A stretch of DNA of 64,000 nucleotides from Candidatus Poribacteria bacterium (GTDB lineage Bacteria > Poribacteria > WGA-4E > JAJDTR01). The notes beneath the pieces were generated by a model. That model did not search any database. It had not been told where the DNA came from and saw nothing but the letters and a program-made list of their open reading frames with translations. Positions 5,679 through 63,141 of this stretch are shown one piece after another. Both the position numbers and the translations under genes were made by a program. The stretch covers positions 1,221,345 to 1,285,344 of the forward strand of contig CBDBEE010000003.1 of assembly GCA_965204085.1 (NCBI GenBank), written 5' to 3'. Positions within the stretch are counted from its first letter, which is position 1, and every line of letters begins with the position of its first letter.

Positions 5679-5734
5679 GTAGGCGGGAATCAAGCGACCA
5701 AATAGGGAGTGCGATAGAGCTCCCCTTGCCCCGC
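5679..5734 (+). repeat. GTAG REP interrupted by the 37-nt cassette (5688-5726)
   Basis: gtaggcggg | aatcaagcgaccaaatagggagtgcgatagagctcccct | tgccccgc. Confidence 0.8.
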
Positions 5735-5809
5735 TTTGGAGAGACTTGATTGACGCTATTAATGCGCCGCCAATATATAGAAATGGTATGACTTGGATTA
5801 CCTATATTC

Positions 5810-6418
5810 GTGAATTCATTTCCTCCGCAACTGCTCAATCAAGCTGTTGAACTTTTAAGAGATGGCGGTGTTGTCGCTTTCCCAACCGATACCGTATACG
5901 GCGTAGGAGTCGACCCGTTCCAACCGGAAGCGGTGCGAAAGCTGTATCGGATAAAGGGACGACCGGATGACAAACCGATTGCGATTCTCGTTGGTTCGAT
6001 TGCGGATGTCGAGCAGGTCGCTCAATCTGCTTCAGAACCCTTTTCTCGACTTGCTGATCGGTTTTGGCCCGGAGGATTAACGCTGATCCTTGAAGCGCAA
6101 GATTTACCGCCTGAAATCACCGCGGGTGGAAGTACCGTGGGCGTCCGAATGCCAAATCACCCGTTGACGTTAGAACTCCTGCGTAGCTTTGGTGGTCCAA
6201 TCGCAACCACCAGTGCGAACAAATCCGGAGAGGAACCGGCAACTTCTGCCGGAGAAGTGGGCGCCCAACTTGGAAATCGCGTCGACCTGATTGTGGACGG
6301 CGGAACTACCTTCACGAAAGTCGCCTCGACGGTGCTGAATCTCTCGGTTTCGCCCCCAAAAATCCTCCGTCACGGCGGCATTCCTGACGAACTGTTGATG
6401 GAGTGTCTTAAAGACTAA
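5810..6418 (+). CDS. tsaC: L-threonylcarbamoyladenylate synthase (TsaC/YrdC)
   Basis: FPTDTVYG, KGRP, WPGGLT, GVRMP, TSANKSG. Confidence 0.95.
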   Translation: MNSFPPQLLNQAVELLRDGGVVAFPTDTVYGVGVDPFQPEAVRKLYRIKGRPDDKPIAILVGSIADVEQVAQSASEPFSRLADRFWPGGLTLILEAQDLPPEITAGGSTVGVRMPNHPLTLELLRSFGGPIATTSANKSGEEPATSAGEVGAQLGNRVDLIVDGGTTFTKVASTVLNLSVSPPKILRHGGIPDELLMECLKD

Positions 6419-6502
6419 AAACCTGTTCACACAAACCGCGTGAATTTACTCTCACACTCTTGACGGAGTAACCACGCAAACAAAAAATTGGCATCTATTT
6501 TC

Positions 6503-6719
6503 GTAACTGTTTAGTCCCTTGATTTCTGGAGTCGAGCACTGTGAATCTAGACTGCTTTTTTCCCATTTTCGAGGCGGATCTCGTGTGGATGCTCATTTTT
6601 TCGGTTTGTAGTAGGGATCAAATGAGTGAATAACGAATGCGATAGAGATCCCTCTTCATTGCCCGTCCTATGGCTCTGGGGTTTTACTGACCACTAATCA
6701 CTAGCCACTAAACACTTAC
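6503..6719. mobile_element. MITE with GTAACTGTTTAGT end; carries a REP interrupted by the cassette (6617-6654)
   Basis: Ends gtaactgtttagt / actaaacacttac; flanks CTATTTTC / TTATTTTC (7/8 TSD). Confidence 0.75.
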
Positions 6720-6806
6720 TTATTTTCCAAACAGGTCGAGGATGATGAGGAATGGAATCTTCCAACCTTCCATTCTTCCAGCACCAAACCGATGGAGGAT
6801 ACTCTC

Positions 6807-7406
6807 ATGGCACGACAAGTATTCGTAGACATCGACACCCAATATGATTTTATCAGCCGAGACGGAGCGCTATCCGTGCCCGGCGCCGAAGAGATTCGAG
6901 GCAACTTAAAAGCACTGACGGATTACGCCGTGCAGAACGGCATCAGGATTGTCGCCTCCGCGGACGCCCATGTCCCGGATGACAAAGAGTTTGAAGTTTT
7001 CCCTCCTCATTGCGTCCAGAACACCCCGGGACAGAAGAAAATCGAGGAAACAACCACGGCGGCTACGGTTGTGCTTAAGAATGACGCAACAGAAACAGCG
7101 CGAGCCTATCAGATCGAAGACGCCGACCAGATTCTGTTGGAGAAACAAACTTTCGACGTGTTCACCAATCCCAGCGCGCCCGGAATATTTGAGGCAGCCG
7201 GCGGAGATGAATACATTGTTTACGGTGTAGCCACCGATTACTGTGTCAAGGCTGCCGCCGTTGGTTTGCTTGAACGAGGTTACAACGTGACGGTCGTCGA
7301 AGATGCTATCGCGGCTGTTACGGAGCAAACGGGAAAGGAATCCATCGCGCTGATGGAGGAGATGGGAGCGGCATTCAAGACGACGCATGAGGTTGTCGGC
7401 GGGTAG
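6807..7406 (+). CDS. pncA: Nicotinamidase / isochorismatase-family cysteine hydrolase
   Basis: DIDTQYDF, D.H, FPPHC, GVATDYCV; RBS GGAGG. Confidence 0.85.
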   Translation: MARQVFVDIDTQYDFISRDGALSVPGAEEIRGNLKALTDYAVQNGIRIVASADAHVPDDKEFEVFPPHCVQNTPGQKKIEETTTAATVVLKNDATETARAYQIEDADQILLEKQTFDVFTNPSAPGIFEAAGGDEYIVYGVATDYCVKAAAVGLLERGYNVTVVEDAIAAVTEQTGKESIALMEEMGAAFKTTHEVVGG

Positions 7407-7418
7407 TCGGAGACACGC

Positions 7419-8369
7419 ATGGACACTTGCGGAAAAACCGGTTTGGCGTATCACCCCGATTATGTCAATCACGACACGGGACCGGGGCACCCGGAACGTC
7501 CGGATCGCATCAGAGCCGGGATCCAGGCGATTCAGGAATCAGATTATTGGGAAGAACTGCATCACATTGAACCGACCCATGTCGCCGTAGAGCAACTCCA
7601 GTACGCGCACGCTAGCGACTACATCGACCATGTTCGGCGATGCTGCGAGCAGGAAATCAACCTTGATTACGACACTCCCGTTGTGCGGGAATCGTTCGAC
7701 ATTGCCCGCCGCTCAACAGGCGGGTTATTGAGGGCGGTTGATGCCGTTATGGCGGGAACAGTTCGACACGCTTTCGCGCTCGTCCGTCCGCCCGGTCACC
7801 ATGCCACGCCAAGCAGAAGCATGGGATTCTGCCTGTTCAACAATGTGGCGATTGCGGCTCGCTACCTGCAGCGCGAGCACGGTATCCCCAAAGTAGCGAT
7901 TATTGATTGGGATGTACACCACGGAAACGGCACACAGGATATTTTCTATGCCGATCCATCGGTCTTCTTCTTCTCCATTCACCAATCGCCGCTATATCCG
8001 GGTACGGGCGCAGCCAACCAAACCGGCTCCGGAAATGCGGTCGGCACAACACTCAACGCGCCAGTGCCGCCCCGTAGCGATATCGGCACCTATGTAGAAG
8101 CCTTCGAGAAGGTTCTCACCCCTACGTTGCTGGATTTCTCACCGGATTTCATACTCATCTCAGCCGGATTTGATGCCCACCGGTTGGATCCGCTCGCCAC
8201 AATCAAGCTGACTGGCGAAGGGTTCGCAACCCTTACTTCAATCGTTCTCGATATTGCCGCAGAAACATCTGAGGGGAAAATCGTCTCGGCATTGGAGGGG
8301 GGATACAGCCTGAAGGGGTTGTCGGAGTCGATCGTCGCGCATGTTGGGCAACTCGCAAAAAGCACATGA
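7419..8369 (+). CDS. Zn-dependent histone deacetylase-family amidohydrolase
   Basis: HPERP, RPPGHHA, GFCLFNN, DWDVHHGNGTQ, SAGFDAH, LEGGY. Confidence 0.95.
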   Translation: MDTCGKTGLAYHPDYVNHDTGPGHPERPDRIRAGIQAIQESDYWEELHHIEPTHVAVEQLQYAHASDYIDHVRRCCEQEINLDYDTPVVRESFDIARRSTGGLLRAVDAVMAGTVRHAFALVRPPGHHATPSRSMGFCLFNNVAIAARYLQREHGIPKVAIIDWDVHHGNGTQDIFYADPSVFFFSIHQSPLYPGTGAANQTGSGNAVGTTLNAPVPPRSDIGTYVEAFEKVLTPTLLDFSPDFILISAGFDAHRLDPLATIKLTGEGFATLTSIVLDIAAETSEGKIVSALEGGYSLKGLSESIVAHVGQLAKST

Positions 8370-8388
8370 AAATGGGTAAATAGTCCGT

Positions 8389-8420
8389 GAAACCGAGTTT
8401 TTTCCCGAAAACTCGGTTTC
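8389..8420. repeat. GAAACCGAG palindrome family copy (others at 11873-11903, 13220-13251, 32335-32366; half copy 29257-29269)
   Basis: gaaaccgagtttt...aaaactcggtttc hairpin recurring in intergenic DNA. Confidence 0.85.
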
Positions 8421-8437
8421 TTTTCTTCTATCCTCCT

Positions 8438-8519
8438 GTAGGGTGCAATCAAGCGAATGGATAATGAGTGCGATAGAAATCCCCTGCGCACCAGTTTTGT
8501 AGGGTGGGCACTGCCCACC
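8438..8519 (+). repeat. REP interrupted by the cassette (8447-8485), followed by an intact sister REP (8499-8519)
   Basis: gtagggtgc | aatcaagcgaatggataatgagtgcgatagaaatcccct | gcgcacc versus gtagggtgggcactgcccacc. Confidence 0.85.
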
Positions 8520-8520
8520 G

Positions 8521-9240
8521 TTACTCTGCAACCTCTAATCTTTTCCTGCCCACATGAATAGCGACGATACCAAATGTCTTCCGATAAAACCGAACAGCCT
8601 CCAGCCCGCATGAACGCATAATACTCGCCAATTCCTCACAATCGGGAAAATCCATCACAGATTTCGGGAGATAGCCGTAAGCATCGTCTCTGTTTTTCGA
8701 GACCAGATTCCCGATGAAGGGTAGAACCTTCGTAAAGTAAAAGTAGTAGAACCACCGAAACAGCCGATTATTCGGTTGTGTAAACTCCAAAATCACGATA
8801 CGTCCGCCGCTGACGGCTACCCGCGCCATCTCTCGGATACCGTTTTCAAGGTCGGCAACATTGCGAATACCGAACCCGACCGACACCACATCAAATGTGT
8901 TCTCCGCAAACGGGAGCACGAGCGTGTCCGCCTCTATAGGAATAAAAACCTTCGAGCGTTTCTGTTTCTCAACCTTCCGCTTGCCGACGGCCAACATTTC
9001 AAAGCAGAAATCCGTCCCGATTACCTCCGCATTTACTCCTATTTCATCGGCGTAGGCGAGGGCAAGTTCCCCGGTGCCCGTGCAGACATCGAGCACCTTG
9101 CTCCCCTGTGTGACGCCGCTGACACGAGCGGTAAACCTCCGCCATGAACGATCAAATCGGAGGCTCAAGAGCGAATTGAGGAAATCGTATTGCCGTGCTA
9201 TGGAGGAGAAAATCTTGTGAACGTAAACTGCCTTGTTCAT
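8521..9240 (-). CDS. menG: Demethylmenaquinone methyltransferase MenG/UbiE
   Basis: YDFLNSLLS, VLDVCTGTG, FGIRNV, ILEF, AYGYLPKS. Confidence 0.92.
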   Translation of the reverse strand: MNKAVYVHKIFSSIARQYDFLNSLLSLRFDRSWRRFTARVSGVTQGSKVLDVCTGTGELALAYADEIGVNAEVIGTDFCFEMLAVGKRKVEKQKRSKVFIPIEADTLVLPFAENTFDVVSVGFGIRNVADLENGIREMARVAVSGGRIVILEFTQPNNRLFRWFYYFYFTKVLPFIGNLVSKNRDDAYGYLPKSVMDFPDCEELASIMRSCGLEAVRFYRKTFGIVAIHVGRKRLEVAE

Positions 9241-9261
9241 TGAGATCCCATGGTTACGACT

Positions 9262-9368
9262 GTAGGAGTGATGAAAAGAATGGACAATGATTAAACGAGT
9301 GGATAGATCAAGCGACTGGATAAGGAGCGCGATAGAGTTCCCCTGCGAAAGAGATCCCTCTTCGACTC
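9262..9368 (+). repeat. REP interrupted by a multi-unit cassette array (9270-9360)
   Basis: gtaggagt | array | ttcgactc. Confidence 0.75.
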
Positions 9369-9402
9369 GTGGTGTACCGGGAATTGAAATTCCCGTTTAC
9401 CA

Positions 9403-11799
9403 TTAACTACGCAACTCGCCGCCCAATTCTTCACTTAACCTTTTAACGATTTTCCCATGAACCCGATCTACTTGTTCATCGGTAAGGGTTTCCGTCGGGG
9501 AGGAGTATTCAATGGCATAGGCGAGGCTTTTCTTGCCATTCGGTACTTGGTCTCCGATGTAGAGATCGAAAAGACGCACCGATGTGACCAAATCGCCGCC
9601 GACAGTACGGATAAGCTCAACGGGACGACTCGCGGGAATATCCGCATCAAGCACGATGGCGATGTCTCGATTAACGCTCGGATAGATTGAAATCGGCTCA
9701 ACTCGCCGAGTCATATCTGCCGCATCTGCCAAGACCTCAAAATCAAACTCGAACAGATATGCCTTGTACCCAAGATCGTAGTTCTGTTGTACTTCCGGGT
9801 GGATTTCTCCAAAGATGCCGAGATGTTGTCCACTAACTTCCACAGATGCATTTCGACCGGGATGAAAGAGCGGATGGCGCGTCGGGGCGATGGTGTGGTC
9901 GGATATGCCGCACACATCGAGCAAGCCTTCGACAACTCCCTTGATGTCGAAGAAATCCGCCGCCCGGTACGGATCGCCATAAACACCGGCTCCGATATTC
10001 CCCGCGATGACACCCGCCACACGCTCGGGTTCGATCGGCAACTCGGAATCTCCACTAGGCACGAACACTTTGGACATCTCGAAGAGTTGGATATTTTCTA
10101 CGCGATGGTTTCGATTTCGCTGCGCATTCTCTAGCAGGCTTGGAACCAGTGTGGTTCGCATTATCGACATCTCTTCGCTCAATGGATTCCGAATATTTAG
10201 CGCATCTCTGACGCTATCGGAGGCTTCAAGCCGTATACGGTCAAAACCTCTCGGGTCGTAGAAGGAGTAGTTGACGGCTTCCGTCATTCCCGATGCGACA
10301 AAGTGTGTCTTCAACCGTTCTCGTAATTCCGATTTTGCGGTCGATGGAGGCGTAGGAACGTCGCCCGTGGGCATAGTTGTCGGAATGTTGTCGTAGCCGT
10401 GCACGCGCGCAATCTCCTCGATTAGGTCAATCTCACGGCTGACATCCGGACGAAAGGTTGGGACCGTAACTTCAAATGCGGGTGACACCTCGAATCCTAG
10501 ACGGGTCAAGATGTCGACCATTTCGTCCGAGGCAATCTGTGTACCCAATACGAAATTGGCACGCTCCGGACGCAGCTTCACTTGGTCAGGTTCCCGTTTT
10601 CCCGGGTGAACATCGACGATTCCCGCCGCGATTTCTCCACCCGCGATTTCCGCAATTAGCTGCGCCGCGCGGTCGATAGCCGGTATCACACCCTCCGGAT
10701 CCGCACCGCGTTCGAATCGGTGCGATGCTTCGGTGTGCATACCCAGCGCTTTTGAGGTTTTTCGGATGCTTGGCGGATGGAAGTACGCACTCTCAAGCAA
10801 CACATCAGTGGTCTGATCGGAAATCTCCGAATCAAAACCGCCCATGACCCCAGCCAAGGCAACCGGATTCTCGGCATCCGCAATCACCAACATGTCGGAG
10901 GTGAGTTTTCGTTCTGCTCCATCGATTGTTGTGAGGGTTTCGTCGGGCGCCGCTCGTCGCACAACGATCCGGTTTTCAGCCAGTTTATGATAGTCGAAAG
11001 CATGCAGCGGGTGACCGCATTCCATCAGGACAAAGTTGGTGATATCGACGACGTTGTTGATTGCCCCGACGCCGATTGATTCGAGTGTCTGCTGCAACCA
11101 TTTCGGTGATGGTGCAATCCTGACGCCTCGAATAACCCGTGCCGCGTAACGAGGACACAGCTCCGGGGCATCGATCACCACGCTCGTCAGTTCCCGGACA
11201 TTTGCGGTGCCCTCTTTCACGTGGACTGACGGCAGTTTTACACGATTGCCCGTCTCTGCTCCGATCTCTCTTGCGATGCCGATCATGCTGAGACAGTCCG
11301 GTCGGTTCGGCGTGATTTCCAGTTCCAAAACAGCGTCGTCCAGCCCCAGTGCTTGCGCTAACGGCGCACCGATTGGGAGGTCATCGGAAAGCGCCATCAA
11401 TCCCGAGGCGTCATCGCCGATTCCCAACTCTTTTTCCGAGCAGAGCATTCCGTGCGATTCTTCCCCGCGGATTTTCGTCGGTTTAATGCTTAAGCCGGTA
11501 GCCAATTCCGCCCCAATCAGAGCGACAGGTGCTGCCATCCCCTCGCGCGCGTTCGGAGCGCCGCACACGATCTGCAAATCGGTGCCCTGTTCTACATCAA
11601 CATCGCACAACACCAGCTTGTTTGCATTCGGGTGGTTTCTGACAGTGTTTATTCTACCTACGACCACGCCATCCAAACCCTCTCCAAGTTGCTTGATGGA
11701 TTCGGTCTCAACCCCGAGCATCAACAAACGATCCGCCAATGCCTTCGGAGAGAGGTCAAAGTCGATGTATTCTTTTAACCAGTTTATTGATACATTCAT
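9403..11799 (-). CDS. pheT: Phenylalanine--tRNA ligase beta subunit
   Basis: IVCGAPN, ITPNRPD, RFERG, DLIEEIAR, C-terminal FDX-ACB domain. Confidence 0.98.
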   Translation of the reverse strand: MNVSINWLKEYIDFDLSPKALADRLLMLGVETESIKQLGEGLDGVVVGRINTVRNHPNANKLVLCDVDVEQGTDLQIVCGAPNAREGMAAPVALIGAELATGLSIKPTKIRGEESHGMLCSEKELGIGDDASGLMALSDDLPIGAPLAQALGLDDAVLELEITPNRPDCLSMIGIAREIGAETGNRVKLPSVHVKEGTANVRELTSVVIDAPELCPRYAARVIRGVRIAPSPKWLQQTLESIGVGAINNVVDITNFVLMECGHPLHAFDYHKLAENRIVVRRAAPDETLTTIDGAERKLTSDMLVIADAENPVALAGVMGGFDSEISDQTTDVLLESAYFHPPSIRKTSKALGMHTEASHRFERGADPEGVIPAIDRAAQLIAEIAGGEIAAGIVDVHPGKREPDQVKLRPERANFVLGTQIASDEMVDILTRLGFEVSPAFEVTVPTFRPDVSREIDLIEEIARVHGYDNIPTTMPTGDVPTPPSTAKSELRERLKTHFVASGMTEAVNYSFYDPRGFDRIRLEASDSVRDALNIRNPLSEEMSIMRTTLVPSLLENAQRNRNHRVENIQLFEMSKVFVPSGDSELPIEPERVAGVIAGNIGAGVYGDPYRAADFFDIKGVVEGLLDVCGISDHTIAPTRHPLFHPGRNASVEVSGQHLGIFGEIHPEVQQNYDLGYKAYLFEFDFEVLADAADMTRRVEPISIYPSVNRDIAIVLDADIPASRPVELIRTVGGDLVTSVRLFDLYIGDQVPNGKKSLAYAIEYSSPTETLTDEQVDRVHGKIVKRLSEELGGELRS

Positions 11800-12071
11800 A
11801 AATGATGTTTCTCCGCTCTCGAATCATACTTCACGATGGAATCTTCAATCCTCAAATCCCAAATTTTGCATCGAAACCGAGTTTTTCTCGAAAACACGGT
11901 TTCTTCCTTCCTCTGGAAGTGTAGATTCGGCGATCGCCAAATCGTCGATATGCTCTTTTCTCTTGCCTTCAGTGTTCATGGAAAATCGTTTAGTCACATC
12001 ATCTGCTCCAGAAGATTGAGGATGTTGTGGAGAAGAATTTTCCAACCTTCCACTCTTCCAATCCAACCCTC

Positions 12072-13088: not shown

Positions 13089-13109
13089 ACTTACCTCCCG
13101 TGGTGCCGC

Positions 13110-13482
13110 AAAAAAAACGCCTATCGCTTCAGTCCCTAGGGACGAAAGCGATAGGCGTCGACTTCCGCGGTACCACCCTAATTAACAGATTTCAGAACTC
13201 GCGTTGAGAATATGAGCGCGAAACCGAGTTTTTTCTTGAAAACTCGGTTTCTTAAATTTGCTTTGCACATTCTTTTGACATGTGCCGATTCCAAAACCTG
13301 TTCACTTTATTGATTGGTCAATAACGGTGACCCCCGGCGCGAGCCTACTTTGCCAACGCGGCGTTCAACTCGGCGGCTCCGGGATGAATTTCGGCGGTCA
13401 ATCTCGAAAATGCGCTTTCAGCCGATGACGCATCCTCTCTTATCGAGACTCTCCAACCGCTTACTGTGTCCCTTCAAAGCCT
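13110..13482 (-). promoter_or_regulatory. T-box riboswitch with Phe (UUC) specifier and intrinsic terminator
   Basis: Minus strand: stem I with AGUA, AGAGA and GGCUGAA, specifier GAAA-UUC-AUCCC (13386-13388), CCGUUA box, AAUUAGGGUGGUACCGCG (13166-13183), terminator plus U8 (13110-13158). Confidence 0.93.
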
Positions 13483-13513
13483 TTGGCGAAATTAATTCAA
13501 TAGTTTCAGAACA

Positions 13514-13861
13514 CTAACCTTTTGCCAGCTCTACAATCCGTCCGAATCCCTTCTCATCGTGAACAGCGAGGTCCGCCAACACTTTTCGGTTTAGATTGAT
13601 CCCGGCTTTCTTCAAACCACTTATCAGACGGCTATACGAGATTCCATGCGCTCTGGCGGCGGCGTTAATGCGTGCGATCCACAGTTTCCTGAACTCCCGC
13701 TTGCGAGCGCGCCGATGGGCATACGCGTAATTCCACCCCTTTTCGACCGCCTCGACAGCGGATCGCCTCAAATTGTTCCGTCCGCCGCGATAACCCTTCG
13801 AGAGCTTCATAATTCTCTTGCGGCTTTTTCGACGGATACTTCCGGTTTTGACTCTTGGCAT
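13514..13861 (-). CDS. rplT: 50S ribosomal protein L20
   Basis: [28 protein letters not shown]. Confidence 0.98.
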
Positions 13862-19450: not shown

Positions 19451-19860
19451 GTAACTGTTTAGTTCGGTCCGAAAAAAGAGAAAAAATTGGTCTAGCATTT
19501 ATTTAGACCTGATCGTCGGTAGGAGGAGCGTTCCTCTAAGGAAGGAGTATCTCTTTGTGGGAGGGGCATCCCTGCCCCGACCGGTCAAGTAAAGTCCGCT
19601 CATTATGTGCAAACGGCGGACCTGCAATGAATTGCACTACTACAAACTGACATCAATCTGTTTTGGAAATGTTGGTTCGTCATGCTGCAATTTAATCCCC
19701 GCTCCTACACCATCAAGCGAACGGATAGTGAGCGATCAAATGAGCGGATAGCGAATGCGATAGCTAATCCTGATAGAGATCCCTGAGCGTAATGTAGGAG
19801 CGACCTCCAGGTCGCGATTTCCTGTTGACGCGTAAGTTCTGGGCTGAACTAAACAATTGC
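19451..19860. mobile_element. 410-bp MITE with GTAACTGTTTAGT ends, carrying several REPs and a cassette array (19712-19784)
   Basis: gtaactgtttagttc / gaactaaacaattgc; perfect 8-bp TSD AAAAAATG. Confidence 0.85.
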
Positions 19861-20041: not shown

Positions 20042-20078
20042 GATTGACTGAGCGATTAGAGAAGACGATAGAAATTCC
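20042..20078 (+). repeat. Degenerate 37-nt cassette
   Basis: gattgactgagcgattagagaagacgatagaaattcc aligns ungapped to the consensus. Confidence 0.55.
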
Positions 20079-29187: not shown

Positions 29188-29188
29188 C

Positions 29189-29244
29189 GATCGACTGAGC
29201 GGATAGCAAAGGCTATAGCAATTCCTGCGCGATAGTGAATCCTC
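29189..29244 (+). repeat. Cassette array next to a half GAAACCGAG palindrome
   Basis: gatcgactgagcggatagcaaaggctatagcaattcct + gcgcgatagtgaatcctc; only the right arm (29257-29269) of the palindrome is present. Confidence 0.65.
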
Positions 29245-29293: not shown

Positions 29294-29509
29294 GTAGCTG
29301 TTTAGTTGAACTTATTAGGACAAACTAGAATGGAATCAATCTATTAGGATTTTCTTCTCTCGGTTTGTAGTAGGGCAATTTATTGCCCGTTTTTAAAGAA
29401 ATCAACACACGAGTCGGGGGTAGGTAAGTGAGCGATCAACCGGACGTGCAATGAATTGCACTACTACGAACCAACATTCGCATTATTGATCGGTGGACTA
29501 AACAGTTAC
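29294..29509. mobile_element. 216-bp MITE with two inverted internal REPs
   Basis: gtagctgtttagt / actaaacagttac; perfect 8-bp TSD CGCTTGCC. Confidence 0.88.
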
Positions 29510-30322: not shown

Positions 30323-30468
30323 TGAACCCTGCGCAATACAGTTCCCTCTCCCAATCGTGCCTTTCTGTCGTGACCGAGCGTGGCATCTCTATCGCCTTCG
30401 TCATTTACTCAGTTCATCGTTTTTACAAGAAACAGAGGCAGATGCGCAGTGCACACCTTACAAGAAAT

Positions 30469-30556
30469 GGTGAGCGGACGATTCCTATGGGAACTCTATC
30501 GCAGTCGCTATCCGCTCCCTTGATCACTCACTATCCGTTCGCTTGATCTCACCCTA
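30469..30556 (-). repeat. REP interrupted by a cassette array (30476-30547)
   Basis: Minus strand: tagggtgag | atcaagcgaacggatagtgagt-gatcaagggagcggatagcgactgcgatagagttccc-ataggaatcgtcc | gctcacc. Confidence 0.8.
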
Positions 30557-35223: not shown

Positions 35224-35293
35224 ACGGTTGGCTGTACCGAGTGACAAGTAATGGTTTATTCTCTTGCTGGTCACCCCACACTCCTTAATATCA

Positions 35294-42439: not shown

Positions 42440-42535
42440 AGCAGTGGTCAGTGGCTGGTGATCGGAGAAATAGCTGTTGACGCTGAAAACCTTTTTTCAC
42501 CTTGCTACTCGTTACTGTTCACTGACAACTGAATT

Positions 42536-45500
42536 ATGAACTACGTCTTAACTCGCCACTCATCACTCATCACCTTCCGTTGCCTTTTCCTATTCGTGCT
42601 CTTTCTCGTTCAATCCCCTTGCATCGCAAGCTCTTCCGGGCAGACTCGTCCCGTCAAACCGCAACCTACAATCACCAAAATTAGCTTCTTCATCAATGGA
42701 AAAATTCCGGTGGATTCTTCTCGCTTGGCACAGTTGCGGCAGATTTGCGAGATTTCGGTCGGTGATCTGCTGTCTCCCTATGCCGTTGCCAAAAGCATCA
42801 AGGAAATCTACGCGACGGGCGAGTTTTCCCAAGTTGAAGTCATCAGGCAGGAAGTCTTCCGCGGGGTTTATTTGAAATTCCAGCTAACCGAAAAGATCCT
42901 CATTAGTCGTATTGTGTTCACGGGGATGCGCTTGGATGACGAAATGGTTCGCAAAGTCATGAAATCTCGCGAGGGCGGCGAATACGTCGAGGAGGTGGCG
43001 CAGGGCGATAGACAACGCATACAACAGCTTTACCAGGACCTAGGGTATCTTAGAGCTCAAGTGCGCTTTACCGCGCCTCCAACTTCACAGATCAAGGGAC
43101 CGGTCACACTGACTTATGTCGTGAAAGAGGGGAATCAGTCGATTATTCGAGAAATAGAGTTCATCGGAAATTCCTCGTTGTCCGATAAGCAGCTAAAACG
43201 TGCAATTAAAACTAAGGTGGGGCAACCGTACGACAAAGGTCAAGTGGGACGCGACAGCCAGAGCTTGATGGCACTCTATCGGAGCAATGGATTCTTGAGT
43301 GCACGCATTCACCCAGAGCAACGCACTGAACGCGCTGAGCTATTCCTCACCTTCAACATCGTCGAAGGAAAGAAGGTAATTGTAAAGGGCATTGACGACG
43401 ACGAACTGCTAAAACGAATGGGTTTGTTCAAACAGGATAGTTATTCTGATGCGATTCTCGAAGGCAATAGAGCACAAATTCGACAATTCTACCGTCAGAA
43501 AGGCTACTACGACCCAAAGGTCGCTTATCAGATTGAAAAGGATACGGCGCACGAGGTCGTTATCCAGTTCGATATTGATTTGGGTTTGGCGCCGAAAATT
43601 GGGCAAATCACTTTCAATGGTAACAACGAATTTCAGAGCAAGACTCTACTTGATATTATGAAGACCCAGCCCCGCAGCCGGTGGGCAGTCCCCGGTCTGA
43701 GGTGGTTTTTTTCCAAAGGCATCTTCGATTCTCTTGTGTTCGAGACGGACATTCGCGCGCTGGAACTCCTGTATCGAAAGGCGGGATATCCCGATGTGCA
43801 GGTGGAAGTCCGGCAAGAGATAGATGCGAAGAACCAACGTCTCAACCTCCAAATTGATGTCAGCGAAGGGACACAGCAGGTCATTCGCCGAGTTACAGTT
43901 GCAGGAAACCGAGTATTCCAAACAGAAGAACTGTTGTCCCAACTTGATGCCATACCCGGTAAACCCTACAGCACGGAAGGTATCGTCGTCGACGACCATT
44001 ACAAGTTGCTGGCATATTACAATGAAAAAGGTTACATCTATGCAGGTGTAACACCGGAATATAACGCTCACCTATTCCAGACTACCCTAGAACGCCCAAA
44101 TGACTGGGAAAATCTTGAGAATCGACTTCCTAAAAAGTTGCCCATCCCTGCGCCTGAAGTTTTCCGCGAGTTGTTTGAAGGGAAATTGGACAGTGACCGG
44201 GAAGCCGCCAGCGACTCACTACGCTTATCTCCGAACGTCTTCGTAGAAAAACAGGAGAGCGGCTGGATGGTGACCGACCAAAACACTGAACGCAGCTATA
44301 TCGTGGAAAGGGACAAGGACACGCTCAACATCTACGAGATCGGTCTGTTGAGATACAACATCACTGAGGGGGAAAGAGTTTCATTCGGAGTGTTCAGCTT
44401 TTCGAGGGACTCTACGACCGGGATCAGAGAGAATGTATTGCGGCGGGAGTTTGAAAGTCTGGGTGTGCATAAAGGCGCCGTCTTCAACCCCGATAAGCTG
44501 CGCGAAGCTCAGCAACGCCTAGCTAGGCTTGACATTTTCAGACGAGTTAAAATAGATACTCCGGGAATGAAGGACCGTAAAGAAGTGCTTGATGTCGATG
44601 TGGAAGCGGAGCTAAGACAGCCCGGTTCCATTAGCGTTCGGGGAGGTTACAGCCCCTCGGAGGGAATCCGCGGCACACTGGCGGTGCTTCATAGCAATCT
44701 GTACAGACGAAACATGAGGGCGGGAGCGAAACTAATAGCAGGCACACGAGGAAATCTATATGAACTCACCCTCATTGAACCTTGGCTCATCGGACCCACC
44801 ATGGGAACATTGCGGATATTTGAGGATAATTTGGAGGAGCAGGACAATACTCGCGCGAGAGGTGCCACCGGGAATCTTGCAAGACGCTTAAGTCTGTACA
44901 GCAACATAGCGGTACAGTACAAGTACCAGGAGTTGCGACAGCGGATTATGACCATGCAAGAGCTTGAATCTTCAAAGCCGGTAACACCGATGGAGAGATA
45001 TACAACCGTTAGCAGCTTGGGGTTGTCATTTCACCGTGACAACCGTGAACCATTTCTAAATCCGGCACACGGCTGGTTAAACGAATTCGCCGTCGAGTAT
45101 GCTGGAGGATTTATCGGCGGGAAAACGAGTTTTTTCAAACTTACAGGGGACAATCGAATTTACTCGCAGGTTGGGAACATGGTTCTTGTCAATGCGCTGC
45201 GCCTTGGTTATGCAAGAGGTTTACGCTCGAACCGCGAGCGTGAGATTGTGTCCTTTGAGCGATTTCGAGCTGGTGGATCAACGACGGTTAGAGGATACGA
45301 AGATAGATCACTCGGTCCACTTGATGACGAATTGTCCAACACCCATCGAGGCGATGTGCTTTTCATATATAACATCGAGTTGCGGTTTCCTCTTCACAAA
45401 ATTCTCGGTGGAGCGCTGTTTTTCGACACGGGCAACGTGTGGGATAACCTCGGAACAGTCGATACTGATCCGTTGCACTCCGCAATCGGAGTAGGAGTGC

Positions 45501-45601
45501 GGGTCGACACACCGTTGGGACCATTCCGCTTTGATTACGGCGTCCCGTTAGTTGGCGACGAGTCACCGCAGATCATTGTCGGGTTGGGTCAGGCCTTTTG
45601 A
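42536..45601 (+). CDS. BamA/TamA (Omp85) family outer-membrane protein with multiple POTRA domains
   Basis: POTRA Y...GY motifs, GGSTTVRGY, TPLGPFRFDYG, terminal F. Confidence 0.93.
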   Translation: MNYVLTRHSSLITFRCLFLFVLFLVQSPCIASSSGQTRPVKPQPTITKISFFINGKIPVDSSRLAQLRQICEISVGDLLSPYAVAKSIKEIYATGEFSQVEVIRQEVFRGVYLKFQLTEKILISRIVFTGMRLDDEMVRKVMKSREGGEYVEEVAQGDRQRIQQLYQDLGYLRAQVRFTAPPTSQIKGPVTLTYVVKEGNQSIIREIEFIGNSSLSDKQLKRAIKTKVGQPYDKGQVGRDSQSLMALYRSNGFLSARIHPEQRTERAELFLTFNIVEGKKVIVKGIDDDELLKRMGLFKQDSYSDAILEGNRAQIRQFYRQKGYYDPKVAYQIEKDTAHEVVIQFDIDLGLAPKIGQITFNGNNEFQSKTLLDIMKTQPRSRWAVPGLRWFFSKGIFDSLVFETDIRALELLYRKAGYPDVQVEVRQEIDAKNQRLNLQIDVSEGTQQVIRRVTVAGNRVFQTEELLSQLDAIPGKPYSTEGIVVDDHYKLLAYYNEKGYIYAGVTPEYNAHLFQTTLERPNDWENLENRLPKKLPIPAPEVFRELFEGKLDSDREAASDSLRLSPNVFVEKQESGWMVTDQNTERSYIVERDKDTLNIYEIGLLRYNITEGERVSFGVFSFSRDSTTGIRENVLRREFESLGVHKGAVFNPDKLREAQQRLARLDIFRRVKIDTPGMKDRKEVLDVDVEAELRQPGSISVRGGYSPSEGIRGTLAVLHSNLYRRNMRAGAKLIAGTRGNLYELTLIEPWLIGPTMGTLRIFEDNLEEQDNTRARGATGNLARRLSLYSNIAVQYKYQELRQRIMTMQELESSKPVTPMERYTTVSSLGLSFHRDNREPFLNPAHGWLNEFAVEYAGGFIGGKTSFFKLTGDNRIYSQVGNMVLVNALRLGYARGLRSNREREIVSFERFRAGGSTTVRGYEDRSLGPLDDELSNTHRGDVLFIYNIELRFPLHKILGGALFFDTGNVWDNLGTVDTDPLHSAIGVGVRVDTPLGPFRFDYGVPLVGDESPQIIVGLGQAF

Positions 45602-56424: not shown

Positions 56425-56479
56425 CTGCTGAAACTGTGACTTCTTCCTAGGAGCGACATCGCAGCAACGCGTTTCGGCT

Positions 56480-58753: not shown

Positions 58754-58921
58754 AAATCAAATAGTCCTTTCGATTCGAGCCCGAGATAGTTTACGTTGCT
58801 CAAGACGGCATCCATGACGGGAGTAACTCAAATCCGAAACCGTAGTTCTGAGGAATCCGCCAGAATCAATGCGTCGCAGCGATTGTGATATGTCAATAGT
58901 GTCTTGTCGTCTGATGAGCGC

Positions 58922-59839: not shown

Positions 59840-60014
59840 ACATACCTCCCCTATACAGCCCGTTAGTAAAAATGTCAATCCAAATGGTTTACTTGAGACA
59901 ACCTTTACAAATTTGTAGTCTAAATTTGCGTTGGCATTCCACTGTTCTCAAATCCGAGGAGCGTATACTATAGCACGTCTACTTCAGATTTTCAACGATT
60001 AGCATTTGTGTCGT

Positions 60015-60248
60015 CAGGGGAAACGCATCTAAATTTTCTGCCTGACAAAAAAGCAAATCAGGCTAAGTCTGTGATAAATTTTAGGGGTTGTAGGTTGGGT
60101 TGAACGGAATTCGTTAGTGATCGCTAATCTTAGAGGCGTTTCCGAGTCCCCACTTTGCATAAACACGCCAAAAATATGAGTGAAACCCAACAGAAATCGT
60201 AAATTCTACCGCCATGAGACATCCTCTAAATTAGATGCGTTTCCCCTG
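60015..60248. mobile_element. 234-bp MITE with 18-bp TIRs (ISAs1-like ends) and an internal long REP
   Basis: caggggaaacgcatctaa / ttagatgcgtttcccctg; no TSD seen. Confidence 0.75.
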
Positions 60249-60267
60249 TCCGTGACCTAAAAATCAT

Positions 60268-60297
60268 TTGACAATCCGCGAAGGGAACATGTATAAT
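60268..60297 (+). promoter_or_regulatory. Sigma70 promoter of the tRNA cluster
   Basis: TTGACA-18 nt-TATAAT, 14 nt before tRNA-Thr. Confidence 0.75.
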
Positions 60298-60311
60298 TCC
60301 CCCTTGCGTCT

Positions 60312-60386
60312 GCTGGCGTGGCTCAATGGTAGAGCAGGTGATTTGTAATCACCAGGTTGGAGGTTCGATTCCTCTCGCCAGCTCCA
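60312..60386 (+). tRNA. tRNA-Thr(TGT)
   Basis: Cloverleaf, anticodon arm ggtga-tttgtaa-tcacc, encoded CCA. Confidence 0.95.
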
Positions 60387-60398
60387 GTCCCACAGTGC

Positions 60399-60481
60399 GG
60401 GGAGGTACTCAAGCGGTCAACGAGGGCAGACTGTAAATCTGTTGGCTATAGCCTACGGAGGTTCGAATCCTTCCCTCCCCA
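60399..60481 (+). tRNA. tRNA-Tyr(GTA)
   Basis: Anticodon loop ctgtaaa, long variable arm, GTTCGAATCC. Confidence 0.95.
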
Positions 60482-60510
60482 TCCTTTCCTCCATTCCTAT
60501 TTGACAGCGT

Positions 60511-60583
60511 GCGGGAGTAGCTCAGTTGGTAGAGCATTGGCCTTCCAAGCCGATTGTCGCGGGTTCAAGTCCCGTCTCCCGCT
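60511..60583 (+). tRNA. tRNA-Gly(TCC)
   Basis: gcgggag/ctcccgc acceptor stem, anticodon loop cttccaa. Confidence 0.95.
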
Positions 60584-60692
60584 TCGCCGCGCAGCTATTC
60601 GGATTCCTAAGGTTGTGAGGTGGGACACATCGAGATAAATTCCCCGAAATTGGGCGCAAAGCCCCTGTTAGGTGTATAACAAACAACTCATC

Positions 60693-60780
60693 GGAGAGAT
60701 GCAGGAGATGGCTGAACTGGCATGATTGGAAATCATGTGTGCAGGCAACTGTACCGTGGGTTCGAATCCCACTCTCTCCG
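60693..60780 (+). tRNA. tRNA-Ser(GGA)
   Basis: ggagaga acceptor stem, catga-ttggaaa-tcatg, long variable arm. Confidence 0.92.
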
Positions 60781-60800
60781 CCTTTAATATGCAGTAACGC

Positions 60801-61078
60801 CTTGGCTATGCTAAGTGGGGAGGTAGCGGTGCCCTGAACCTGCAAACCGCTTTAGCAGGACTGAAATCCTATTGAGCGGCGGATTACTTTTGGGGTCTGA
60901 CCCAAGTAAGTGGTGTTGAAGATTGGGTCCTGAGCAACTCGAACTTATCAAACTCCGTCAGGTCTGGAAGGAAGCAGCGGTAGATAGGTCTTCGGGTGTG
61001 ACGCAGGGTAGCCTCATCGGAGCTAACTGTTTGGGTAACGCTTGGGAGAATCCGTCAATCTTTCGGTGCATAGCCAAG
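60801..61078 (+). ncRNA. ffs: Large bacterial SRP RNA (with Alu domain)
   Basis: Closing helix cttggctatgc/gcatagccaag; Alu-like ggggaggtagcggtgccctg..cctgcaa.ccgc; helix 8 tcaggtctggaaggaagcagc; upstream of dnaX. Confidence 0.93.
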
Positions 61079-61220
61079 ATTTTTGGGGCGGTTTTGTGAA
61101 TCGGAGAGGAGTTCTGTGGAATGAGGTTTATCGCTGTCGTCTGATTTTGCAGAGTCGCGACCTGGAGATCGCTCCTACCTCGTCGTTTAGCCGGTTGATT
61201 GGTTGTAGAAGAGTGAAGCC

Positions 61221-63017
61221 ATGTCCTATGAGGTAATCGCGCAGAAATGGCGTCCCCAGTCCTTTCACCAAGTGATGGGGCAGGAACACGTCATCAAAAC
61301 GCTGCAAAACCAGATTCGCTTGAATCGAATCGGTCATGCCTATCTCTTCTGGGGCCCGAGAGGCACGGGCAAAACGACGGTGGCTCGTCTTTTCGCAAAG
61401 ACCGTCAATTGCGCAAAGCGCGATTCAGACGCCGAAGCCGGCCCCGATAATCCGGTTGAACCTTGCAACGAATGCGAGTTCTGCCTAGACATTACGCAGG
61501 GCAGATCTTTTGATGTCATTGAGCTGGACGCCGCCTCCAACCGGGGGATTGATCCCATCCGCGAGTTGCGCGAAAACACGAAGCTCGCCCCTGCCGCGTG
61601 CTCCTACAAAATCTACATTATTGATGAAGCGCACATGCTCACGCAGGAAGCGTTCAACGCGCTCCTGAAGACGCTTGAAGAGCCGCCGCCCCACGTTATC
61701 TTTATCCTCGCCACCACCGAGCACCACAAGATTCCCAAAACAATCGTATCGCGATGTCAAGACTTCGATTTTCGCTACATGGAGTTGAATCAGATTATCG
61801 GTCGACTCGAGTTAATCTGCGCCGAGGAGGGCATTGAAGTCGATGATCAGGCACTGTCCTTGATTGCGCGTCAGTCGGAAGGCTGTCTGCGGGATGCCGA
61901 GAATGCGCTTGAACGAATAATCTCGGCGGCGGGTAAAACACTTGATACGGAAACGGTAGATCAGATTCTGGGCCTTGGTTCGCAACCCCTAATCAACAAA
62001 CTCGTGGACGCCATATTGCACTGCAATCTGCCGGATTCGGTGCAAGTTCTCGCCAGCTTGACCAATCAGGGCGCAGATCTCACGCAGTGCCTCCACCAAC
62101 TTATCGCCTATTTCAGGAATTTGCGACTTCTCGCGATTAACGCGGATTTGGCAGATCTGATTCAGGGCTCGCAATCCGATGTACAGGGATTGAAGGAGAG
62201 AGCGGCTGATATCTCCGTGGAGCGTCTGTCAAGGATAATCAAGATTTTGATGCGGACAAGCAGCGAAATCAAGCAGTACGGTTACGCCCAGATTCAGCTT
62301 GAATCCAGCCTTGTCGAGATTAACTCCATTCGGGAGGGTATCCAACTCGGCGAAGTTTTGAAAAGGCTGGGAGAAATAGAGAATAGGATCGACCGCCCTC
62401 GAAACGAAGCGAATCCAACGCAGACAGATTTCTCTTCTTCGAACACAGAGGCGTCCACGAAGCCGCAAATTAACTCCTTGCTCGCGGAATCACAGAAGTC
62501 GTTTGCCCAGCCGCAGCCACCCAAAAACGATAGAAATCCGGCTACTCCCAAGGACATACCCTCGGACACCACGGCCGATGTGGATGCCCGACTAGCCGGA
62601 GAAGGTAGTCGAGCTGTAACACGGAGTCCCGTCGAGATTAAGCAGCTTTGGGAGAAGGCGTTGGAAGCGTGGGGAACGGAGCAGAAAGTACTGCACGGAT
62701 TTCTCAAGGACGCCACGCTTTCGGCGAATGAAGAGGGAGTTTTGGAAATAGCCTGCGCGCCTCTCCAAATCGCGATTCTGGAGAAGAACAGGAAAGAGAT
62801 TGTGGGGACTCTCGAATCTTTAATTGGCCACGGAGTTGATGTGAACTTCGTCCCGGCGCGCAAAACCAGCGAGGCGAACAAATCTCAATCAGCGAAGGAT
62901 GGTGGAGAACAAACCCCAACGCCACTCGCCTTGCAACGTGAGGCTGAGCAGGATCCTCAACTCTCGCCTGTGCTTGAGCTTTTTGACGCGAAGATTCTGA
63001 AAATCGATCTGAAGTAA
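61221..63017 (+). CDS. dnaX: DNA polymerase III subunit gamma/tau
   Basis: KWRPQSF, GPRGTGKTT, ELDAAS, IDEAHML, LKTLEEPP, SRCQ. Confidence 0.97.
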   Translation: MSYEVIAQKWRPQSFHQVMGQEHVIKTLQNQIRLNRIGHAYLFWGPRGTGKTTVARLFAKTVNCAKRDSDAEAGPDNPVEPCNECEFCLDITQGRSFDVIELDAASNRGIDPIRELRENTKLAPAACSYKIYIIDEAHMLTQEAFNALLKTLEEPPPHVIFILATTEHHKIPKTIVSRCQDFDFRYMELNQIIGRLELICAEEGIEVDDQALSLIARQSEGCLRDAENALERIISAAGKTLDTETVDQILGLGSQPLINKLVDAILHCNLPDSVQVLASLTNQGADLTQCLHQLIAYFRNLRLLAINADLADLIQGSQSDVQGLKERAADISVERLSRIIKILMRTSSEIKQYGYAQIQLESSLVEINSIREGIQLGEVLKRLGEIENRIDRPRNEANPTQTDFSSSNTEASTKPQINSLLAESQKSFAQPQPPKNDRNPATPKDIPSDTTADVDARLAGEGSRAVTRSPVEIKQLWEKALEAWGTEQKVLHGFLKDATLSANEEGVLEIACAPLQIAILEKNRKEIVGTLESLIGHGVDVNFVPARKTSEANKSQSAKDGGEQTPTPLALQREAEQDPQLSPVLELFDAKILKIDLK

Positions 63018-63040
63018 TACTAACCCAAGTTGTCACCTTT

Positions 63041-63141
63041 GTAGCACGATCTGTTAGATTGTGCTTCTGGTGCGCAACTCGCGCGCAAACTGACAGATCA
63101 AGTGAGTGAACAACGAACGCGATAGAGATCCCTTACGCTAC
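63041..63141. repeat. Intact REP (63041-63064) plus a reversed REP interrupted by the cassette (63096-63132)
   Basis: gcgcaaactgaca | gatcaagtgagtgaacaacgaacgcgatagagatccc | ttacgctac. Confidence 0.8.

Follow-up and report, generated by a model that had tools for sequence, protein, structure and literature searches.

Small dispersed repeats (SDR) have reportedly been described in Nostoc punctiforme and relatives (Elhai et al. 2008, Genome Res 18:1484). The SDR elements of Nostoc are treated in PMC4390886, PMC5861425 and PMC13756078; in the extracts drawn on here SDR5 is 21 nt long (PMC13756078) and is reported to insert exactly between the third and fourth base of GCGATCGC (HIP1), i.e. G^ATC (PMC4390886). 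As far as these extracts go, the SDR family is the closest known counterpart of the cassette described here, a comparison made by description. Both are tens of bases long, non-coding, dispersed, apparently mobile, confined to a narrow lineage and without a known enzyme, and the joint of SDR5 is that of the cassette at GATC-containing sites. The differences from the extracted descriptions are the length (36-37 nt in the cassette); the host, Nostoc belonging to a different phylum; the target, an octamer in SDR5 and mainly hairpins in the cassette (REPs, IS200 ends and the cassette itself); and, in the cassette, the loss of 0-4 target bases and a hairpin that shows covariation and tandem G.A pairs, documented here. 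The earlier note, which knew of no described element of this kind, had overlooked the SDR and notably SDR5 (PMC4390886).

Three other systems share part of these features. The REP/REPIN sequences mobilised by RAYT proteins (HUH Y1 transposases) are, like the cassette, short, of high copy number and intergenic, with a one-strand hairpin and with neither inverted repeats nor target duplication, and RAYT genes above the NCBIfam cut-off, flanked by REPs, are present here. The cassette differs in having no GTAG head and in forming no inverted pairs (neighbours up to 300 nt apart share their orientation in 134 cases vs 20); it sits as a parasite within at least six REP classes and its distribution is matched by no RAYT subfamily. 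The IS200/IS605 elements and their miniatures ("peel and paste") have strand-specific imperfect hairpins near the ends and likewise lack inverted repeats and target duplication; the cassette, too, could plausibly be acted on in trans, and an IS200-type TnpA is encoded in the same genome. These elements have a hairpin at each end, whereas the cassette has a single one, and the cassette itself invades the hairpins at the ends of an IS200-type element. Known transposition by HUH Y1 enzymes is precise, with a conserved 4-5-nt target and no loss of target bases, whereas the cassette shows no such conserved target and does lose bases. Finally, the elements of the IS1397/ISKpn1 type (IS110/IS1111 family) prefer REP hairpins and have a fixed orientation relative to the REP, as does the cassette, but they are of kilobase size and encode their own transposase, while the cassette encodes nothing.

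The window, i.e. the whole stretch of 64,000 nucleotides analysed, belongs to genome G000; the comparison genomes are labelled G001 and so on, and their genera g1, g3, g4, g6 and g9. Six copies with at most three mismatches to the consensus were identified in the window; 100 shuffles gave an expectation of 0.00. The ten intergenic loci listed in the earlier note, all assessed by looser scans and by eye, proved to be cassettes, whether whole, nested or partial, and an eleventh copy was added. Four full cassettes stand by themselves on the plus strand, all found by the consensus scan. The first (5688..5724, one mismatch) lies within a REP of the GTAGGCGGG...CTTGCCCCGC class, whose cassette-free form reads GCAT at the insertion site, and is borne by a MITE-like dispersed repeat of 173 nt (5621..5793, plus strand) with many paralogous matches; this repeat is absent from G002, G004 and G006, whose two flanks meet directly at the orthologous site. 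In Logan contigs a loose end was observed at 5725, just past this cassette. The second (6616..6652, no mismatches) lies 3' of GTAGTAGG of a REP, its uninterrupted counterpart being the intact REP GTAGTAGGG...CCCG read at 29367..29389 on the plus strand; it is carried by a dispersed repeat of 217 nt (6503..6719, plus strand), identified by cross-genome comparison and absent in G001, whose flanking matches share an overlap of about 8 nt. The third (8447..8483, no mismatches) is in the REP GTAGGGTGC...CTGCGCACC and is followed at 8499-8519 by a sister-class REP that is intact, and the fourth is at 63096..63132 (one mismatch).

The remaining loci are nested or decayed. The array at 98..184 (plus strand), from reading of the sequence and a scan for A modules, comprises three 5' modules (119-134, 136-151 and 154-169) and one closing 3' module; it is a pile of cassettes that are nested or truncated. 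At 9270..9358 (plus strand) genome comparison identified an old cassette (9270-9290 and 9343-9358) placed after GTAGGAGT and interrupted by a 52-nt insert (9291-9342), itself formed by a truncated 5' module (9291-9305) and a full cassette (9306-9342); G001 and G007 contain the old cassette without the insert, and in G003 and G009 the REP is empty and reads GATC there. There are two nested pairs: on the plus strand 19711..19784, with an outer 5' module (19711-19733), an inner cassette of the 36-nt variant (19734-19770) and an outer 3' module (19771-19784); and on the minus strand 30476..30548, with an outer 5' module (30526-30548), an inner full cassette without mismatches (30489-30525) and an outer 3' module (30476-30488). 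The un-nested form of the former was found in contigs of run X5, the joint being 19732>19772 with TGC between, and the 10-bp inverted repeat noticed earlier around this locus is real (19700-19709 and 19793-19802) and consists of two inverted REP heads. Looser scans identified decayed cassettes at 20042..20078 (plus strand, six mismatches), at 29189..29244 (plus strand; 29189-29225 with six mismatches, then a second 3' module) and, absent from the earlier list, at 30382..30418 (minus strand, five mismatches).

A consensus scan of the whole genome yielded 817 copies at up to four mismatches, where chance would give none. Information content falls steeply beyond positions 1-37, so the borders are sharp, and the cassette is a discrete unit of 36-37 nt with neither terminal inverted repeats nor target duplication; these absences and the replacement of a few host bases, as first proposed, were upheld by 272 comparisons of filled and empty sites. 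An assembly or adapter artefact was ruled out, the cassette being present in long-read chromosomes and in Illumina MAGs from several projects; it was also found in Logan contigs from four runs. No replication-strand bias was seen in the contigs scanned ahead of C3.

The core of the cassette is an imperfect hairpin in which positions 7-8 are paired to 22-23 and 11-12 to 18-19; an invariant tandem G.A/A.G separates the two short helices, G13.A17 closes a 3-nt loop, and the whole stands between two invariant tails, (G)ATCAA and GCGATAG plus 7 nt. Any sequence is tolerated in the four base pairs provided that pairing holds: throughout 497 copies they are nearly always Watson-Crick or G.T, with G.T/T.G in 238 cases vs A.C/C.A in 31, and the hairpin is specific to one strand. 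In a set of 123 distinct copies taken from several genomes, pairing was found in 96.1% of the cells vs 68.1% in shuffles (0 of 500 reaching this value) and double-sided changes numbered 145 vs 25.6, while slid controls gave at most 61% pairing. Mutual information was 1.65 bits inside the pairs and 0.42 bits between the two helices. Nearest-neighbour folding, as DNA or RNA, gave a stability not above that of shuffles, so that it is the covariation which supports the structure. The 497 copies contain 134 stem haplotypes, which with the tight compensatory pairing contradicts the fixed RNA- or protein-templated patch first envisaged: new copies are drawn from a diverse existing pool and not from one template. 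Diversity and covariation fit a self-propagating population of tiny non-autonomous elements read as single strands.

Hairpin-forming DNA of many sequence classes is the target, with 0-4 target bases deleted, as shown by reconstructed sites and junctions. Of 106 reconstructed empty sites, 68 (64%) lie in a DNA hairpin of at least 5 bp vs 155 of 600 controls (26%; odds ratio 5.1), and 38 are in the 5' arm of the hairpin, which bears out the hairpin enrichment that had been put forward for checking. A GTAG precedes 175 of 497 copies on the same strand, at a distance of up to 14 nt, vs 5.0% of random intergenic positions; the mirror arrangement was found in 20 of 497 vs 5.5%. About 35% of copies are placed 0-5 nt past a REP's GTAG, in the 5' arm and on the GTAG strand. 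A location inside REP hairpins, as originally described, holds for a large minority, a perfect flanking stem of at least 6 bp being present in 30 of 497 copies under a strict test whose low count is due to the insertion taking away part of the stem. Further targets are terminator-like hairpins, the hairpins at either end of an IS200-type element, and the cassette itself: 185 of 497 copies abut a cassette module, i.e. about a third are inside older cassettes, at spots after position 17/18 and after position 23/24. Nested stacks were directly seen; the earlier note had not given nesting as a rule.

Clean filled and empty pairs were identified between G000 and G001, and of 42 collinear gaps with a cassette 23 were filled in G001 only and 7 in G000 only. 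High copy number is limited to g1 (10 of 10 genomes) and g4 (4 of 4) among 176 genomes and 31 genera of the phylum, Candidatus Poribacteria; the members of these two genera are sponge symbionts. This presence and absence between species, the nesting and the genus restriction are expected of a tiny non-autonomous mobile element and run counter to the former preference for something other than a transposon. Neighbouring copies differ by 4.4 vs 4.57 for random pairs and are no more alike than these, so copies arrive in trans.

The explanation favoured, somewhat above even chances as a whole, is a very small non-autonomous mobile element read as a single strand, with an HUH Y1 enzyme of the RAYT/IS200 kind as the most likely catalyst. 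The mobile, single-strand-read cassette is in itself highly probable, while the HUH assignment taken alone is tentative. Many copies would serve as sources; a single-stranded copy, of DNA more likely than RNA, would be made or cut out, handled by a protein supplied in trans and joined into target DNA that is itself laid open as a hairpin of single-stranded DNA. An HUH Y1 enzyme specific for single strands may suit these steps, given hairpins read on one strand, the absence of inverted repeats and target duplication, and several such genes in these genomes. Y1_Tnp was found in all ten g1 and four g4 genomes, and G000 encodes RAYTs above the NCBIfam cut-off and an IS200 TnpA; Y1/RAYT families are also present in the cassette-free genera g3, g6 and g9. 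A RAYT subfamily flanked by cassette-bearing REPs occurs in 7 of 10 g1 and 2 of 4 g4 genomes, plus 3 of 7 cassette-less g6 genomes, and G008 has no RAYT above the cut-off despite 777 copies. The proposed correlation of gene and cassette presence thus came out negative for every RAYT/IS200 subfamily, and no enzyme is tied to the cassette. Also counting against this reading are the base loss and the missing conserved target, contrasted above with known HUH Y1 transposition, the lack of replication-strand bias in the contigs scanned, the slight orientation bias relative to genes and the outcome of the folding. At 36-37 nt the element would be among the smallest mobile ones seen in bacteria.

The junctions bear on a first alternative. 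A 36-nt piece replaces 0-4 target bases, and the net gain of 32-36 nt was distributed over the 272 comparisons as 34 nt (120), 35 (64), 33 (32), 36 (19), 32 (12) and other (25). In the 89 events scored for left cut and bases lost, 0 (13), 1 (9), 2 (26), 3 (17) or 4 (24) bases were missing; many empty sites are paralogous repeats and not orthologues, and some of these differences may be later mutations. The left joint is mostly after G (G^C or G^ATC), with 0-4 nt shared, and its dinucleotide is GC in 34 of 89 events vs 5.2% of the background. An unrecognised non-HUH integrase or nuclease-ligase, cutting single-stranded or extruded hairpins at these points, splicing in the cassette and dropping the bases between two close cuts, would agree with this left cut, with the loss of 1-4 bases beside fixed element ends and with the patchy, genus-restricted distribution. 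To our knowledge no HUH transposase makes two target cuts. There is also a parallel in SDR5 at GCG^ATCGC in Nostoc, its enzyme likewise unknown in the extracted accounts (PMC4390886, PMC13756078). No candidate gene was found, however: Cas1 is present, yet the CRISPR repeat is unrelated to the cassette and no regular cassette arrays were seen, and Y2 transposase gave no match with a model also silent in every control genome. This alternative is rather unlikely.

Somewhat less likely is spread without a dedicated enzyme, by host template switching at stalled hairpins and gene conversion among repeats sharing arms (REP stems or the conserved cassette ends). It is in line with the failure of any gene family to track the cassette; with the different variants carried, at an identical junction, by a given REP class; with the same-position cassettes of G000 and G001, four of five pairs of which differ chiefly at stem positions, as if overwritten; and with the stereotyped nested junctions (42 events of "G, 2 bases lost"). 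However, the identical ends of about 800 copies are beyond the reach of one-base overlaps, one REP class is hit at several different positions and unrelated hairpins are hit too, without homology arms, neighbouring copies are not the source, and the restriction to two of 31 genera suggests a specific factor.

RNA-templated insertion is doubtful to a slightly greater degree. Here cassette transcripts would be trimmed to a defined length of 36-37 nt, and a reverse transcriptase or other polymerase would copy them into hairpin DNA that is nicked or broken, as a target-primed event or a repair patch; this is the idea of the earlier note, with many templates in place of one. Fixed element ends and a sloppy target side (0-4 bases lost, 0-4 shared) resemble target-primed or end-joining events, wobbles of the G.U type are allowed on one strand only, the loop GRAUA is compatible with a loop of the GNR(N)A type, and RNA folding recovered the covarying pairs in two of four top strands. 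On the other hand, RVT_1 had no match in the cassette-rich genomes G000, G006, G007, G012 and G021, a weak RT-like ORF of 657 aa in some g1 genomes is absent from G000, G006, G007 and G008, and the orientation bias relative to genes is weak (210 sense vs 140 antisense). With Ku in 0 of 41 genomes, the reverse transcriptase or end-joining source formerly suggested is not upheld. A host-selected functional motif (an RNA-stability or protein-binding hairpin) kept per locus, its mobility only apparent, is highly improbable: the structure is strongly conserved, copies are nearly always intergenic (4 of 642 deep within an ORF of at least 300 aa, by crude ORF calls) and there is a modest sense bias, but nesting copies destroy older ones, most copies are not common to sister species, both orientations occur in every gene context and no Rfam family matches the cassette even at E<=1.

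Two minor observations complete the survey. A single RNA run contained 0.05 of the words, the runs examined being contigs. RAYT genes are flanked by their own REPs, and cassettes are enriched around these genes because of the RAYT-associated REP arrays.

With high confidence, the cassettes form a population of very small, non-autonomous mobile elements that is read as a single strand. This conclusion is drawn from diverse but strictly paired stems, invariant unpaired bases, sharply defined ends, insertions specific to one species and the nesting of copies. The termini read (G)ATCAA and ATCCC, and information content is high over positions 1-37 and near nil beyond them, hence the cassette is a discrete unit. 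The consensus proposed in an earlier note on this DNA was recovered in six window copies at three mismatches or fewer, against 0.00 expected from shuffles; the other loci listed there proved to be decayed, truncated or nested cassettes, as identified by a looser scan and by reading of the sequence, and one additional cassette lies on the minus strand at window 30382-30418. The source genome, G000 (6.58 Mb, three contigs, 50% G+C; the window is C3:1221345-1285344), contains 817 copies at four mismatches or fewer in the whole-genome scan that the same note had proposed: 137 with none, 198 with one, 162 with two, 145 with three and 175 with four. An adapter or assembler artefact, a concern raised in that note, is ruled out by the occurrence of the cassette in long-read and short-read assemblies of several projects. 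No exact match was found among viral contigs.

Two observations concern variants of the unit. In the cassette-rich genus g4 (L142 and L146; genomes G015 and G027) positions 1-30 are kept and the end is TCTTCYC or TCTTACC, not ARNTCCC, so that the last 7 nt of the cassette are genus-specific. Another genome of the phylum carries three abutting head-to-tail cassettes (G004:C60:33834-33938) that repeat every 35 nt exactly; this unit, positions 2-36, is the shortest observed.

Each cassette contains a single hairpin at positions 7-23. Positions 7-8 covary with 22-23 and positions 11-12 with 18-19; between these helices the invariant G9-A10 faces G20-A21, forming a tandem G.A motif, and G13 faces A17 across a 3-nt loop. 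In an alignment of 123 distinct cassettes from the window and several other genomes, standard pairs occupy 96.1% of the pair cells against 68.1% in column shuffles (none of 500 as high), double-sided changes at the pairs number 145 against 25.6, and slid controls reach 61% pairing at most. Wobble at the four pairs is common as G.T (238) and rare as A.C (31), which indicates selection for pairing on the strand of the cassette itself; these counts and the covariation describe a recognition hairpin functional on one strand only, as in HUH-like systems. The 497 cassettes compared present 134 stem haplotypes, a number that rules out a few master copies as their source, and the two helices assort almost freely (mutual information of 0.42 bits across helices vs 1.65 bits inside pairs). 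Nearest-neighbour folding with DNA or RNA parameters found the hairpin no more stable than shuffled sequence, so the support for the structure comes from covariation, and the hairpin probably needs non-canonical pairs or a protein. RNA parameters recover the covarying pairs in two of the four top strands and add a possible helix between ATC (2-4) and GAT (26-28). No cassette matched Rfam 15 at gathering score, and none at E<=1 in window 5500-9500.

The preferred targets are hairpins. A same-strand GTAG is located within 14 nt upstream of 175 of the 497 cassettes, against 5.0% of 5,000 random intergenic positions, mainly 0-5 nt from cassette position 1; the mirror arrangement is at background (20/497 vs 5.5%). 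Hits were also seen in a family of terminator-like hairpins and in the hairpins at the ends of an IS200-type element. Empty sites, reconstructed from cassette-free relatives of the flanks, provided 106 dereplicated non-nested cases, in which 68 joints fall within DNA predicted to fold into a hairpin of 5 bp or more, against 155 of 600 random intergenic positions (odds ratio 5.1); 38 of the 68 are in the 5' arm. The location inside hairpins, suggested in the earlier note together with an enrichment test, is supported by empty-site folding. A strict flank test identified a perfect stem of at least 6 bp beside the borders of 6% of copies; it was replaced by empty-site folding because insertion removes stem bases.

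Comparison of filled and empty sites agreed with the claims that a few host bases are replaced and that terminal inverted repeats and target duplication are lacking: 0-4 bases are lost and duplication was never observed. The junction and empty-site counts are descriptive and not independent trials, since many empty sites are paralogous rather than orthologous and the repeat copies are kin: in 89 dereplicated clean events the bases absent from the filled site are 0 (13), 1 (9), 2 (26), 3 (17) or 4 (24), that is, 1-4 target bases lost in 76; G precedes the joint in 63 of the 89 and GC spans the left cut in 34, vs 5.2% in the background; and the net gain in 272 comparisons is 34 nt (120), 35 (64), 33 (32), 36 (19), 32 (12) or other (25). 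Where the site contains GATC, G^ATC is a valid way of placing the joint. Capture of GATC restriction fragments was rejected, as the predicted 31-nt net gain and the right junction do not match.

Two repeats of the window are related to these target types. Window 13220-13252 is a 33-nt terminator-like hairpin (GAAACCGAG...CTCGGTTTC), itself a very high-copy repeat, with a summed contig depth of 640-4,090 vs about 10-50 in adjoining bins; at other sites, members of this family serve as cassette targets, and the joint lies in the 5' arm. Window 3128-3199 comprises two adjoining REPs with GTAG that belong to related classes (GGTAGGTTCGG... and CGTAGGTGCGG...), and contig depth is again very high there in each of the four runs. 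Logan contigs of sequencing runs break at repeats and most joints in them are cross-mapping among cassette copies; contig depth and uncovered stretches of the runs were left out as evidence.

Mobility is documented by orthologous sites, a comparison that the earlier note had called for. Over 400 kb of the sister species G001, clean filled/empty pairs were identified in both directions. Collinear intergenic gaps with a cassette in G000 or G001 number 42: 23 in G001 only, 7 in G000 only and 12 in both. Window 9291-9342, formed by a truncated 5' module and a full cassette, is missing at the orthologous site of G001 and G007, which carry just the older cassette that it interrupts; in G003 and G009 the REP is empty. 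Where an aligned position is occupied by a cassette in G000 as well as in G001, four of five pairs differ chiefly at stem positions, as would follow from overwriting or from hot spots that were hit repeatedly. A comparison of conservation in orthologous cassettes was left with four clean syntenic pairs, too small a number to draw on.

About one third of the cassettes are nested in others, after position 23/24 or 17/18, and nesting yields stacks in which the 5' modules precede the 3' modules. Cassettes at most 300 nt apart are co-oriented in 134 cases and inverted in 20, and neighbours are as unlike one another as random pairs, which argues that new cassettes arrive in trans and that clusters represent target choice; local copying from neighbouring cassettes is ruled out by the same similarity test. 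Part of the spread is passive, since the cassettes at window 5688 and 6616 are carried within larger dispersed repeats, 173 and 217 nt in length, that are themselves insertions relative to the sister species. No pattern of replication-strand bias was found in contigs C1 and C2 of G000. The two carrier repeats (window 5621-5793 and 6503-6719) are MITE-like; G000 and the sister species have dozens of copies that are 75-98% identical, some with the cassette and others without it. Where the 217-nt repeat is inserted relative to G001, the joint shows an overlap of about 8 nt, possibly a target duplication.

High cassette numbers are limited to two genera of different families, g1 (10 of 10 genomes) and g4 (4 of 4), among 176 genomes of the phylum. 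Sporadic cassettes in other genera reach a g1-like density but occupy just one to four contigs of a MAG: C72, C83, C91 and C116 of G066; C353 of G125; C61 and C362 of G146; and C49 of G124. Their confinement to so few contigs suggests binning carry-over of g1 DNA.

The cassette hairpin would serve as a handle for a trans-acting factor that reads one strand. An HUH Y1 enzyme (the RAYT and IS200-type TnpA class) is a tentative candidate for this factor, to which the strand specificity, the lack of inverted repeats and duplication, the preference for HUH-type hairpins on the GTAG strand and the failure to find reverse transcriptase (five cassette-rich genomes) or Ku (0 of 41 genomes) all point. 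Y1 transposases (Y1_Tnp) were identified in 14 of 14 cassette-rich genomes and also in cassette-free genera; G000 encodes an IS200-type TnpA and several RAYTs above the NCBIfam cut-off, and G008 has no RAYT above it. Y1 subfamily profiling found no Y1 or RAYT subfamily matching the cassette distribution, the RAYT subfamily flanked by cassette-bearing REPs being found in 7 of 10 g1, 2 of 4 g4 and 3 of 7 genomes of the cassette-free genus g6. This failed correlation and the loss of target bases argue against the textbook HUH reaction. Cassette density near a RAYT is high in one g4 genome (9 within 8 kb vs about 93 in 4.9 Mb); each RAYT that was inspected has REPs of its own class on its flanks, and the nearby cassettes sit within those REPs, a simple explanation for the local enrichment.

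A rather unlikely alternative is an undescribed bacterial reaction in which a structure-guided enzyme, either HUH in a novel mode or a new enzyme, cuts out and patches. A single-stranded hairpin would be opened at G^C or G^ATC, 1-4 bases would be removed and the 36-nt hairpin-bearing strand spliced in. If so, the cassette would live as a hyperparasite on the hairpins of REP/RAYT and IS200, and its chemistry would be shared with the unexplained SDR5/HIP1 insertions of cyanobacteria.

Writing by a reverse transcriptase, one of the enzymes considered in the earlier note, found no support in the genomes searched: RVT_1 gave no candidates in G000 (93% complete) and none in G006, G007, G012 or G021. 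A weak RT-like ORF of 650-657 aa (RVT_1 20-25 bits, below cut-off) was identified at L161:1370-3340 in G001 and L162:1347-3296 in G027; it occurs in six of nine other g1 genomes, one g4 and one g6, with in-frame stops in four, and was not found in the 93% complete G000. The Y2 transposase model had no match, and it matched no control genome either, so that this negative carries little weight. Cas1 is encoded at two G000 loci (C3:1857215-1858129 and C1:100598-105957), and no link of Cas1 or CRISPR to the cassette was found, the sole CRISPR array identified (C1:103110-105957) having an unrelated repeat. One Cas1 lies within a 561-aa open frame and may be a fusion; the other is adjacent to a CRISPR array in which some 40 repeats recur roughly every 73 nt.

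Comparison with known repeat classes separates the cassette from most of them. Classical MITEs of DDE transposases have terminal inverted repeats and a fixed-length duplication, and the cassette has neither. REPs and REPINs have a GTAG-type head, whereas cassette positions 1-6 are (G)ATCAA with GTAG in the flank only; the inverted pairs and matching RAYT distribution of REPINs are likewise lacking (134 co-oriented, 20 inverted). Miniatures of IS200/IS605 have two end hairpins and insert at a conserved tetra- or pentanucleotide without base loss, unlike the cassette, whose left flank is merely G-rich with no such conserved motif. CRISPR repeats form regular arrays and the spacing between neighbouring cassettes is irregular; retro-elements imply a reverse transcriptase, which the carrier genomes searched did not provide.

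The cassette does share the definition of the small dispersed repeats (SDRs) of Nostoc, being a non-coding dispersed repeat of less than 40 nt with insertion polymorphism among relatives. To our knowledge these are the sole comparable case, and they have been without a mechanism since 2008. As described in citing passages, SDR5 is 21 nt long and of unknown function (PMC13756078) and inserts precisely between the third and fourth base of GCGATCGC (PMC4390886); the passages (PMC4390886, PMC5861425, PMC13756078) report no SDR-like repeats found outside Nostocaceae. By that description the Nostoc SDRs are the closest described counterpart, of the same kind and sharing the G^ATC joint, although the cassette is set apart by its size, its host phylum, the hairpin targets, the loss of bases and the documented structure. 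Literature searches, whose coverage did not extend to Elhai et al. 2008 or to any supplements, found no prior description of the cassette in Poribacteria or of REP-loop cassettes.

With 36-37 nt, one hairpin and no coding capacity, the cassette is about as small as an element that propagates itself can be, and it shows that REP/RAYT systems can be parasitised in turn. The family offers far richer data than the Nostoc SDRs: 14 genomes with hundreds of copies apiece, filled/empty pairs by the dozen, nested stacks, a defined hairpin with its fixed and free bases listed, and a target rule (hairpin 5' arm, G^C or G^ATC joint, 0-4 bases lost). These data are sufficient for the design of oligonucleotide substrates for the RAYT and IS200-type enzymes that these genomes encode. 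The cassette is also a handy strain marker and a known cause of assembly breaks in Poribacteria MAGs.

Other features of the window are a run of four consecutive tRNA genes followed directly by a large SRP RNA of the Bacillus type (256-position model) at 60312-61073, and two very long plus-strand ORFs of 2,391 and 1,021 aa at 35264-45601.
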